The notes under the pieces: model-generated
What the model saw: the letters and a program-made list of their open reading frames with translations, nothing else
The model's database searches: none
Told to the model about the DNA's origin: nothing
Assembly: GCA_025457885.1 (NCBI GenBank)
Contig: JALOTN010000001.1
Span: 2,822-66,821, forward strand
Reading direction: 5' to 3'
Length of the DNA: 64,000 nucleotides
DNA from: Thermoplasmatota archaeon
GTDB lineage: Archaea; Thermoplasmatota; E2; DHVEG-1
Made by a program: the position numbers and the translations under genes
Shown: in pieces, positions 57,440-63,124 of the stretch
How positions within the stretch are numbered: the stretch's first letter is position 1
How the letters are laid out: each line of letters opens with the position of its first letter

Positions 57440-60400
57440 ATGAAAGTAAAAAGAAATAAATTAAAAATTATTTTGTTTATCTGGGCATCAATTCTATTGT
57501 TTATTCTCGGAAATTCACCTATTGGTTTAAGTGATTTCGTTCTTCCTTCTCAAGGAGGTGGAATGATCCATTGCGATCTTAACATGTCAGAAAATATTAG
57601 GAGACCTGTACCTGTAAACAATGTAGGTGAAGTTTGGTACCGTGATGATTTAGGTTTATTAGGAAAATTATTTGGAACGATTGGTAATGGAATCTCGGGA
57701 AACGGGAAAATTGCAGCTTGTTCCTTTGGCCCACTTAATTTTATCGGGAATCCTTTAGACCCAAATGATAAACTCGTTATTTTCGATTATTATGGTAACC
57801 AAATATGGTCATCTGGTTGGTGGTTTGCACCTAATGTATCTGAACACGAATGGTCATTAAACCTCGCGGCATGTTCTTCTTCACCAATGATTGACATAAA
57901 CAATCGTGTAGTTGCTTGTGATAATCAAAAAATAATATTAGTGAACGCCTCAAATTATGATAATGTTCAAGTTGAATGGATATCATATTTATCTGGAGGA
58001 CTCCCTGTCTGTCCAAGCATAGTTGAAAACAAGTCAATCGTCTTACCCTGCAAAGATGGACCAATATATTTATTTGACGTAGAAACTGGTGCGAAACTTG
58101 CCGAGAAAAGACTTGGAATGAACATCACTATTAATCCCTATTGGGGAATCCCAGAGATGAGTATGAATGAGTATTTGGATATTCTCTGGAATTATACTTG
58201 GTACAGTATTTGTCCTTATCGATATAACAGTACAACTCAACTTATCGAATGGAACTTGTCGACACCATTTAAAATCATGCCCATAAAAAAAAATATATTT
58301 AAAGATGGAGATTTGTATTTCTGGACTAAAGATAATTATGTCACGGTAATACAAAGAGAAGGATTATTTAATTGGACGATTCTTGCCAATAATTCTATTG
58401 AAGGTGCTGGTCTTTATACAGGTGAGGGTTTCTTTTCTACCATCAACTCAGCATGTGTTAAAGGTAATAGAGTCTATGTAGCAACTGAATATATGAAACC
58501 GAGTATCTGGTCTAAAAACCATTCAATCGGAAGATTATATGCTATAGAAGTGAACCCAGACGCAGAAAATGAGTCCGACCGCTTAATGGAGTTATGGAAT
58601 TATTCGTATTTTGGGAGAAGTCAGGCTACTCCAACTCTAATAAACGATACTATATATTTCGATGGATATAATGATACATGGACAGCACAATTGAGGGACC
58701 CACATATTTATGCAGTATATACAAATGGAACTGAGAAATGGAAGATTAGCTATCCAAATATAACTTGGTTTACTTTTACTACGGATCCACGAGGTGGTTT
58801 CTGGTATGAAGATGCTGATCAATGGCCATTCCGTCCGTTCAGTGGCGGAAATAAATTAGTGCATTTTCGAGAAGAAGATGGTAATATCACGGAAGTTCTT
58901 GTTATGAAAGAACTTCTTAATGACACAGGACCAAATTGGAATAAAGATGTTATCCCATCTTCGGATATGACCATATGTGGAAATGCTACAAATCCAATCA
59001 TGTTAATATCTGCGAATCACCCACATTTCTATGAAGGCAAATGGGTTCTTGCAGTTAATCTTACCACCAATAAAACTATCTGGAAAGTACCAGTAAATCA
59101 TTCGATTAATTTTAATTATGCGCCTGGTGGTTATACAATTTTAGTGGAAAATAATCAATCTCGGATATTATTTCCAACATTTCTTGGTGGTGTTATGGCA
59201 ATTGGTACATTTCCAAACACTTCATTTCAAAATATCGGATATTCCCTCAAGGATTCATCCGAGGATTACAATATCTACGATGATACCGTCCAGGTTAACT
59301 ATACAATAACATCAGTGATTCCCGACCGTGTTTTTATCAAGGCAATGCTTAAATCAGTAGAATATCCGATAATTTGTAGATATTTTACGGAAAAACATTA
59401 TAATGTGACTCCTGCTGGTTTAACAGATAGCCTCAATATTACTCTTCCATCATGGGCACCCTCAGGTAGCTATCTTCTACAGGTCTTTTTGTATAATTCA
59501 AGTGGAGGAATAAAAGATATTGTAAATAATCTCTTGAATAAAGAATCCAAGAATAAAGAATATGCAAATGAGACATACGAAGCTGGCCCTTTCTCTATGT
59601 ATCCATTAAATGATCCACCAGAAGTACCACAGCAACCATGGATCGCCGATGTGATCAACAATCATATGAATATATATGCAACCAACTCAACAGATCCTAA
59701 TGAAGATAATATATGGTATCAATGGCGTTATGATTCAGGACTAGGGACCACCTACTACACTCGCTGGGTTATGGGGGGGCCGTATGAATCAGGGGAAAAT
59801 TGCTTCCGACCAATTAGTTGGTGGTTCCCTGGTGAATACCAAGTTCAAGTACGGGCAAAAGACAACTTATTACAACCCGATGTCTTTTCCACCTGGTCTG
59901 AACCACTTAATGTCACTGTCACCGCAAATCAAGGGGCTCCAGTTCCATGGAATAACGAACTCCTAGGGCAATTCACCCAAACCCTTGTCACACCTGCACA
60001 ACAAACAAGTTGCACTGGTTTAGCCGAAGGTGTTTATATACAGACACAAACAAGAGAATCACTCAACTGGAATTGGAGTTTCGGTGATGGCACCTATTCA
60101 GAAGAACAAAATGTCACCCATAACTATAGTGCAATTGGGACATATGTCGTCAACCTTACTCTTGAAAATGGACAAGGAGATTATTTTAATTGTACTATCA
60201 ATATTTCAGTTGTCAATCTGAAATCAGATTTTAATATCATAGGTGGTCAGCCAGGAACAAATATATCCTACTCGGATATATCTAGTGGTGTAAATTCGAT
60301 TGTCAACTGGACATGGGATTTCGGAGATGGAAATAACTCATATCAACAAAATCCCATACATGTCTATGCAACATCAGGAATCTATAATGTTTCGTTAACC

Positions 60401-63124: not shown

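Follow-up and report, generated by a model that had tools for sequence, protein, structure and literature searches.

A codon-usage step inside a large PKD-domain gene of a Thermoplasmatota archaeon points to recombination between domains of separate history

Introduction

In a 64,000-nucleotide stretch of contig JALOTN010000001.1 from a Thermoplasmatota archaeon (hereafter the window), one large gene near the 3' end codes for a protein of 1,894 amino acids (aa) that exactly matches NCBI entry MCU0849709.1, a 'PKD domain-containing protein' of Candidatus Thermoplasmatota archaeon. Our analysis favours the view, to which we give a probability of roughly 0.7, that this gene is a mosaic in both composition and phylogeny, put together by recombination where domains meet, and that it belongs to a large modular family of proteins secreted by Thermoplasmatota. 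In the sequences compared here it falls into three units with separate histories, namely an AT-rich head (aa 1-746), a stalk (aa 747-1042) that is likewise AT-rich and contains the PKD domains, and a conserved module of ~790 aa. An initial annotation of this DNA, which saw the head of a surface protein being shuffled on a retained C-terminal module, proposed the right kind of process but misjudged where and when the recent event took place.

[quoted passage not shown] These are among the most abundant uncultured archaea of sediments, and their secreted proteins are thought to drive protein degradation. Mosaic surface-protein genes in AT-rich flexible regions are well known from bacteria and haloarchaea, and surface genes with swappable domains on a conserved anchor are familiar from phage tail-fibre and receptor-binding proteins, polymorphic toxins and bacterial antigen genes.

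Results

Codon usage changes in one step inside an intact gene

The open reading frame (ORF) is intact over its whole length, in line with the single uninterrupted frame described at the outset. Bulk GC inside it is 0.33-0.38 at 57.5-59.5 kb and climbs to values of 0.45-0.52 at 60.8-63.0 kb. This rise, which had been taken for a 5' to 3' gradient, is real and almost wholly a third-position signal, yet its shape is that of a step rather than of a smooth gradient: GC at third codon positions (GC3) is 0.289 over codons 1-1042 and about 0.59 (0.589) over codons 1043-1894. The maximum-likelihood change point falls at codons 1042-1059 with a log-likelihood ratio of 87.5, as opposed to a maximum of 8.7 in 500 permutations (Table 1 gives the support interval of 2 log-likelihood units). 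The intermediate GC reported for 59.7-60.7 kb comes down to a small bump at 59.55-60.15 kb, due mainly to first and second codon positions (GC1/GC2), after which values return to 0.33-0.36 ahead of the step. Downstream of the step GC3 is high until the stop codon and composition falls directly after it. Both flanks are AT-rich, as had been claimed, with GC of 0.22-0.35 at 55.5-57.4 kb and 0.24-0.31 beyond 63.1 kb, and the AT-rich block as a whole extends from ~55.5 to ~64.9 kb, broken by a native-like tract of 2.5 kb whose end coincides exactly with that of the stop codon. The block's far end is seen in L001, a separately deposited and near-identical contig of the Joint Genome Institute (JGI; 2 mismatches in 16.5 kb, none in the big gene), which together with the window we treat as one strain-level sequence (2 nt apart).

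Amino-acid composition, a possible trivial cause, was excluded. With native codon preferences one would expect a GC3 of 0.541 in the 5' part and of 0.535 in the 3' part, and the observed values are 0.289 and 0.591; since the two expectations are so alike, the make-up of the protein explains none of the step. For 18/18 degenerate amino acids, the codons of the 5' part resemble those of the AT-rich island genes and the codons of the 3' part resemble those of native genes, and the distance of the 3' part from the native codon pool (0.084) compares with 0.085-0.199 for the native genes tested. Codon usage of the module is, in other words, indistinguishable here from that of the host's other genes. 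From head to module the change is strand-symmetric, with A and T at third positions (A3 and T3) each down by ~0.15. Head and stalk (GC3 of 0.29) together with the contiguous flanking genes (0.26-0.32) make up a compositionally atypical island when set against the 40 other ORFs of the window (0.42-0.61). Such atypical composition is by itself no proof of transfer.

Domains of the protein

Local alignments of the big protein to 160 homologues gave the map of its parts (Table 1). They agree with the domains assigned from sequence alone: the AT-rich part codes for a signal peptide, for a probable propeller of PQQ-like type and for two PKD domains, and the GC-normal part for an all-beta module. Residues 1-590 of the head are 44-52% identical, over their full length, to stand-alone proteins with precomputed PF13360/PF13570 matches; the window protein itself gave no Pfam match to the PQQ-like/BamB-like propeller profile (PQQ_2) at E<=1. 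The PKD domains were identified through PKD_4 (PF18911; E 4.8e-24, 84.7 bits vs a cut-off of 27) and PKD (PF00801; E 2.2e-19), the best stretch being aa 943-1004. Head-side homologues reach aa 1106-1113 and module-side homologues begin at aa 1005-1009, and the immunoglobulin (Ig)-like linker domain in which the two sets overlap (aa 1005-1106) would, on these alignments, be a recurrent recombination zone.

No Pfam or NCBIfam model matched the C-terminal module, the NCBIfam scan of the big protein returned PKD-like matches only and comparison of the module profile with PDB sequences yielded nothing meaningful (best match E 0.03). The AlphaFold prediction for aa 1005-1894 (pLDDT 78.8) is all-beta, and Foldseek places this model with galactose-mutarotase-like/YidC-P1-like beta-supersandwich folds, next to low-TM matches to beta-sandwich arrays. 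The sole strongly hydrophobic segment of the protein is N-terminal, and there are 71 N-X-S/T sequons. Two antisense ORFs lie within the gene (62435-62959, minus strand, 174 aa; 58070-58354, minus strand, 94 aa); neither was called by JGI and both are most likely spurious.

An independent orthologue shares the step and differs in its head

Scaffold_512 of Thermoplasmata archaeon M11B2D (L007), an independent Thermoprofundales/MBG-D MAG from another study (Mai Po sediments), carries a full-length orthologue of the window gene (121-5664). Its GC3 also rises in a step, at query aa 1050, where 0.337 gives way to 0.587 with a log-likelihood ratio of 58. Synonymous (dS) and non-synonymous (dN) divergence between the two genes, calculated segment by segment with the Nei-Gojobori method, is very unevenly distributed. 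The head (aa 1-746) has a dS of ~2.0 (dN 0.37), the stalk (aa 747-1042) 0.32 (dN 0.05), the linker (aa 1043-1106) 1.24 (dN 0.08), the module core (aa 1107-1572) 0.30 (dN 0.04), the insert (aa 1573-1736) 0.20 (dN 0.03) and the terminal domain (aa 1737-1894) 0.54 (dN 0.04). Because the same step is found at the same codon in L007 and dS is equal across it (0.32 upstream, 0.30 downstream), the step predates the split between the window lineage and M11B2D, and the idea that it is the scar of a recent acquisition does not hold. The joint of stalk and module, contrasting composition included, thus existed already in the common ancestor of the two. The initial annotation had itself named two findings that would speak against its reading; one, the same step in an orthologue, is what we see, and the other, an explanation by amino-acid composition, is not. 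The dS excess of the linker over both of its sides (0.30-0.32) is significant (binomial p 2.6e-7), and this raised patch means that the step region, too, has seen exchange.

The big recent change lies elsewhere. Identity between window and L007 is 56% in the head (aa 1-746) and 91% in the rest of the protein, with a change point at aa 747 (interval 746-759; nt ~59.68 kb) that has a log-likelihood ratio of 158 (Fisher p ~5e-68). Since the split, the head has thus been exchanged for a deeply divergent allele in one of the two lineages. Which one is suggested by a third homologue, P0121. L007 and P0121 are 75% identical in the head and 73% in the stalk; for the stalk of the window, identity is 91% with L007 and 71% with P0121, and the window head is 56% identical to both. 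These three-way identities favour the window lineage rather than M11B2D as the one that changed its head, and a replacement in the window's lineage is what we consider most likely. The nearest relatives of the window head are P0127/P0128 with 64% identity. P0127 comes from a host genome of 33.6% GC, and its GC3 of 0.27, typical of its neighbours, is akin to the composition of the window head. Of the replaced, exposed N-terminus postulated earlier, it is the replacement of the head by recombination in this lineage that stands; its junction at aa ~747 (~59.68 kb) is within the AT-rich part and not at the step.

Junctions in further family members fall in similar places. L008 (identical to L030 and L031) has an unrelated head (27-38% identity) on a module that is 87% identical to the window's; its identity junction with the window is at aa 1078-1101 and its own GC3 step at aa 1055. 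L097, L032 and L006 show significant GC3 change points at aa 728-808. Taken together, these junctions indicate that two zones were reused, the head/stalk boundary and the linker ahead of the module.

The module belongs to a large family and has a codon usage of its own

That a conserved C-terminal module stands behind differing heads, an expectation of the initial annotation, was confirmed by the homologue alignments. Homologues are 45-92% identical to the window protein across aa 1005-1893, and among the 160 that were aligned the module is found behind many heads, including M28 peptidase, beta-helix, discoidin, LamG, Hint and PKD. With a module profile of ~880 positions, in which the window sequence is the first row, 4,509 cluster representatives were retrieved at E<=1e-3, and 920 of them reach E<=1e-30; the complete module stands at the C-terminus of many, and others have sub-domains only. 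The window protein matches this profile over its full length at its C-terminus, and further full-length copies stand behind differing heads in Thermoplasmatota. Within one genome, paralog modules are 60-89% identical, which rules out pervasive homogenisation among them. Parts of the module seem to occur as stand-alone or decayed genes as well. Around the P0121 gene in L096 (1264-4161 and 10356-11870), small separate genes encode module pieces: a 503-aa protein that corresponds to window aa ~1266-1894, and 135-aa and 88-aa fragments that correspond to the terminal domain.

In 42 non-redundant family genes (loci L002-L095), GC at synonymous third positions (GC3s) of the module is higher than that of its own head in 40/42 (mean +0.085, p 4.5e-12) and higher than that of flanking genes by +0.078 (p 6e-9), with heads close to flanks (-0.005). 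The offset is a loss of A3, which is 0.20 in the module vs 0.30-0.33 in heads and flanks; T3 is unchanged. GC-biased gene conversion is an unlikely cause of this family-wide offset, given that A3 alone falls and T3 is constant, and the codon set of highly expressed genes was discarded, as EF-1a is not A3-depleted. Module GC3 stays at 0.57-0.66 in hosts whose background GC3 goes from 0.375 to ~0.58 and between which dS is saturated, and in L008 and L033, too, GC peaks locally at the module. In the window, module minus background GC3 (+0.07) equals the family mean, and head minus background is -0.25, with a family range of -0.10 to +0.14. Hence about a quarter of the 0.30 step can be put down to the module itself, and about three quarters to the unusually AT-rich head and island. 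For the native module that was said to have been retained, this leaves a mixed result: its codon usage is native-like (distance 0.084), but retention as such is uncertain with a module that is GC3-richer than its surroundings family-wide.

A related cassette adjoins tRNA-Arg in a sister genome

The divergently transcribed gene for a 210-aa protein upstream of the big gene (Table 1) is a conserved partner of the head cassette: its homologues adjoin those of the big gene both in L096, where two copies have 38-39% aa identity, and in L097 (45%). The protein itself had no family match in Pfam, NCBIfam, PADLOC or PHROG scans. Between the two genes, a divergent intergenic region of ~160 nt with 17-22% GC is kept in all four homologous cassettes, which have in common the motifs TTTATTGG and AAATTATTTAAAG as well as a GGGAG/GGAGG ahead of the ATG. 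A promoter role of 57276..57439 may be envisaged on this basis.

L097 is a 378-kb contig of a close relative (S10 99% and EF-1a 97% aa identity; flanking blocks 76-81% nt identical). Its cassette consists of a 213-aa gene (45% aa identity) and a big gene, P0122 (55%), with an AT-rich head and a GC-normal 3' part, and it is found at a chromosomal site different from the window's, directly beside tRNA-Arg(TCT). Two tandem inserts (4993-16080) are bounded there by three copies, partial or complete, of the 3' end of tRNA-Arg (4993-5025, 6382-6414, 15994-16026). The first, of 1.4 kb, has an AAA_14/DUF4143 ATPase gene; the second, of 9.6 kb, holds the 213-aa gene, P0122 and the genes for a 302-aa and a 444-aa protein. 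At its C-terminus the former shares 72% identity with the final 103 aa of the window protein, and the latter has a weak Phage_integrase match (E 3.9e-4, below the gathering score). The L097 cassette thus combines all three features of a tRNA element, i.e. tRNA adjacency, tRNA-derived direct repeats and, weakly, an integrase-like gene.

Where L097 holds ~11 kb of tandem inserts, the insert at the equivalent tRNA-Arg site of the window is no longer than 640 bp and contains a PemK/MazF toxin gene. A degenerate direct copy (18/24 nt) of the tRNA-Arg(TCT) 3' end is present at 46916-46939, ~640 bp from the tRNA (47582-47657, minus strand), and the stretch 46916-47657 resembles what a small integrated element would leave behind at a site of frequent integration.

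Table 1. Coordinates of the big gene, its parts and nearby features in the window
Feature	Position (nt)	Residues or codons	Strand	Description
Big gene	57440..63124		+	Intact 1,894-aa ORF; identical gene called by JGI
Head	57440..59677	aa 1-746	+	Signal peptide, probable PQQ-like beta-propeller to ~aa 590, extension aa 590-746; GC3 ~0.27
Stalk	59678..60565	aa 747-1042	+	Two PKD domains; AT-rich, GC3 0.25-0.40; 91% identical to M11B2D orthologue
Two PKD domains	60032-60451	about aa 865-1004	+	Pfam PKD_4 and PKD
Ig-like linker domain	60452..60757	aa 1005-1106	+	Common to head-side and module-side homologues
GC3 change-point interval	60551..60626	codons 1037-1062	+	Synonymous usage flips from island-like to native-like
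Conserved C-terminal module	60758..63121	aa 1107-1894 (~790 aa)	+	GC3 0.59
Module core		aa 1107-1572	+	Sub-part of C-terminal module
Module insert	62156-62647	aa 1573-1736	+	Only in closest relatives (subclade-specific)
Module terminal domain	62648-63121	aa 1737-1894	+	Sub-part of C-terminal module
210-aa protein gene	56643..57275		-	Hydrophobic N- and C-terminal stretches; divergent to big gene; GC3 0.27
Divergent intergenic, putative promoter region	57276..57439		.	17% GC; four-cassette alignment (window, L007, L096, L097)
NosD-like right-handed beta-helix secreted protein, 346 aa	55584..56624		-	Pfam NosD 3.9e-11, Beta_helix 8.8e-10; GC3 0.32
AT-rich downstream flank	63125..64000		+	GC 0.24-0.31; 96-aa ORF 63346-63636; 385-aa gene starts 63666 and passes the window end
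PemK/MazF-like toxin gene	46974-47330		-	Between tRNA-Arg and its partial copy
DUF7557 gene	47284-47511		-	Between tRNA-Arg and its partial copy

Discussion

Our preferred reading, that of a mosaic gene built by recombination at domain boundaries, may be pictured as follows. Head, stalk, the 210-aa gene and other AT-rich neighbours would belong to a flexible gene pool that passes between lineages of Thermoprofundales, AT-rich ones being numerous among them, and that is probably carried on integrative elements. The shared linker and module would provide the sequence homology for the exchange of heads. The module would act as a constant chassis of beta-supersandwich and beta-sandwich domains, possibly one that binds glycans or the cell envelope, and the propeller head would be the variable, exposed part that binds ligands.

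Several points weigh against this reading. Head cassettes are AT-rich in four GC-normal hosts though their mutual dS is saturated (>2), which a simple one-off transfer does not explain. The best relative of the window head is only 64% identical at the aa level, and because no donor above this value was found, direction and source of the transfer are deduced from composition only. Since the module is GC3-richer than heads and flanks family-wide, the step may partly be the module's own property rather than a matter of foreign vs native origin. As for the figures behind these comparisons, background GC3 in related loci derives from stop-to-stop ORFs, not curated gene calls, and the background composition of M11B2D is that of a different contig of the same bin. 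Finally, the edges of the island, the far one of which is outside the window, come without a tRNA (55-64 kb; the only window tRNAs are at 47.6 kb), without repeats of at least 30 nt and without an integrase in the neighbouring genes, so mobility of the island is at most presumed. Segment-specific synonymous constraint and an ancestral gene conversion of the module may both have contributed.

One extension of the mosaic reading is that AT-rich cassettes, each made up of the 210-aa gene, the promoter and the propeller-PKD head, circulate among Thermoprofundales on elements which integrate at tRNA-Arg, and that they dock by recombination at the Ig-like linker onto the constant module, with selection on synonymous sites keeping the module's A3-depleted usage in hosts that differ widely in GC content. 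If true, it would account for cassettes that are AT-rich despite saturation, for a module that is a GC peak everywhere and for junctions that recur at the same two boundaries. We regard it as possible, if rather speculative.

Equally doubtful, to our thinking, is a scenario of gene conversion in which the island brought along a complete AT-rich gene and a resident paralog then overwrote its 3' module from the linker to the stop. Consistent with it, the GC-normal tract begins in the first domain common to module carriers, ends exactly at the stop and has AT-rich DNA on both sides, and module codon usage is native-like. However, neither the 64-kb window nor the 9 kb that L001 adds past its end contains a module paralog, paralog modules that differ as much as they do within genomes show homogenisation is not pervasive, and any such event would have to be older than the M11B2D split.

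Could the step have formed with no transfer at all? Here, segment-specific synonymous forces would be at work, with the module kept A3-poor by selection for translation or folding or by biased repair, and with a fast-evolving head and its neighbours drifting AT-rich. This agrees with the GC3s excess of the module over head and flanks and the likeness of the latter two, with a module offset in the window that is just the family mean, with module GC3 values that hold across hosts of differing background despite saturated dS, and with head cassettes that are AT-rich in four hosts. Yet the window head is 0.25 below the genomic background and so far outside the family range; the change from head to module is strand-symmetric, as for a different mutational background, whereas the family offset concerns A3 only; whole neighbouring genes have AT-rich usage, too; and the stalk is AT-rich yet not fast-evolving. 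Phylogenetic discordance among the segments is direct evidence of exchange. So we see this scenario as unlikely.

Still less probable is a recent recombination at ~60.6-60.7 kb, private to this lineage, that put foreign AT-rich DNA over the N-terminal two-thirds and left a native module behind. A step that is sharp and synonymous and flanks that are AT-rich would suit it, and the linker dS of 1.24 relative to the orthologue does speak for some post-split exchange there. But M11B2D has the same step at the same codon, stalk and module have diverged alike (0.32/0.30) and the big post-split replacement stops at aa 747, not at the step. An assembly or binning chimera, with the contig jumping inside the conserved module between paralogs of different organisms, can practically be dismissed: the sequence is from a MAG and a multi-copy module family could confuse assemblers, but the junctions are alike in the NCBI MAG contig, the JGI contig (0 mismatches in the gene) and M11B2D (a different study), and two jumps would be needed, one into the module and one out again.

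Nor did we find local stores from which heads could be shuffled. There are no silent cassettes or repeats nearby: the 55-64 kb region has no direct or inverted repeats of at least 30 nt and, at that length, no pairs like those of diversity-generating retroelements and no att sites, and tblastn of the big protein against the window and L001 returned the gene itself only, with no silent cassette, paralog or second copy of any part. For programmed switching, silent cassettes, invertases or retroelements there is hence no evidence near the window gene from the 55-64 kb repeat search and tblastn. The mosaic reading compares with mosaic adhesin and receptor-binding genes, in that a conserved module provides homology and chassis and a distal domain is swapped among deeply divergent alleles at domain boundaries; unlike in those genes, it is the N-terminus that varies here and the C-terminus that is constant. 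A likeness exists also to tRNA-integrated islands with a tyrosine recombinase, as seen in the ~9.6-kb L097 insert with its tRNA-Arg(TCT) repeats and the adjoining Phage_integrase-like gene; unlike these, the AT-rich block of the window has no tRNA, att-like repeat or integrase in the available sequence.

A further parallel is the cell-wall-associated island GI1 of Haloquadratum walsbyi, with variable clusters of secreted and surface glycoproteins of beta-helix and Ig-like architectures, which, in the excerpts of the report used here, is described as diversified by homologous recombination and mobile elements with breakpoints within surface-protein genes (Martin-Cuadrado et al. 2015, PMC4535781). 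On that account, both cases would concern secreted-protein genes of flexible regions that are diversified by recombination with intragenic breakpoints. GI1, however, varies among strains of one population, whereas our evidence spans different species and MAGs and the L097 cassette is at another chromosomal site. Also, a GC3 step of 0.3 inside one gene that is kept in the orthologue was not met in those excerpts of PMC4535781.

The M11B2D orthologue (scaffold_512_1) has been published as an extracellular MEROPS M09B peptidase (collagenase) with 7,988 transcripts per million, a value which implies that it is transcribed in situ, again going by excerpts of the source (Zhou et al. 2018, PMC6461988). 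With the M09B/PKD proteins presented there, the window protein shares its lineage (Thermoprofundales, MBG-D), secretion and PKD domains. Collagenase identity finds no support, though, as Pfam and NCBIfam returned no peptidase domain, Peptidase_M9 included, for the window protein and neither this protein nor L007 has a HEXXH motif. The M09B label on the orthologue is probably wrong and derived from the PKD domains. Neither the modular family nor the compositional mosaic was met in the excerpted parts of PMC6461988.

As a case of surface-protein shuffling the window gene is clear but fairly ordinary. What it offers is, on the one hand, a swappable head on a conserved unannotated module, and with it a handle on secretome reshuffling and exchange between lineages, and on the other, a conserved intragenic step in codon usage that makes a natural test of amelioration vs segment-specific synonymous constraint. 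What most deserves to be followed up, in our view, is the module family, which is unannotated, together with a codon usage that does not depend on the host.

Neighbouring genes and further observations

The ORFs of the downstream flank gave no family match (Pfam, NCBIfam, PADLOC, PHROG), and no homologue of a downstream gene lies next to another member of the family, so that synteny does not tie the AT-rich 3' flank to the module. Among the neighbours there was no PADLOC or PHROG match except for a gene beyond the window, at 22155-24726 of L001 (~69.6-72.2 kb in window numbering), which codes for a HerA/TraG/VirD4-like ATPase (PADLOC mad8 1.2e-21; Pfam TrwB_AAD_bind and TraG-D_C) and adjoins a DUF8128 gene. 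The two may be part of an element, whether mobile or for defence, that lies downstream of the AT-rich block.

The window has four other putative secreted-protein genes, encoding a 1,201-aa PPC-domain protein (12369-15974), a 699-aa beta-helix/NosD protein (16040-18139), a C25 gingipain-like peptidase (36622-39564) and a C13 legumain-like protein (53615-54475). The largest three have a GC3 of 0.42-0.45, somewhat below that of most window genes.

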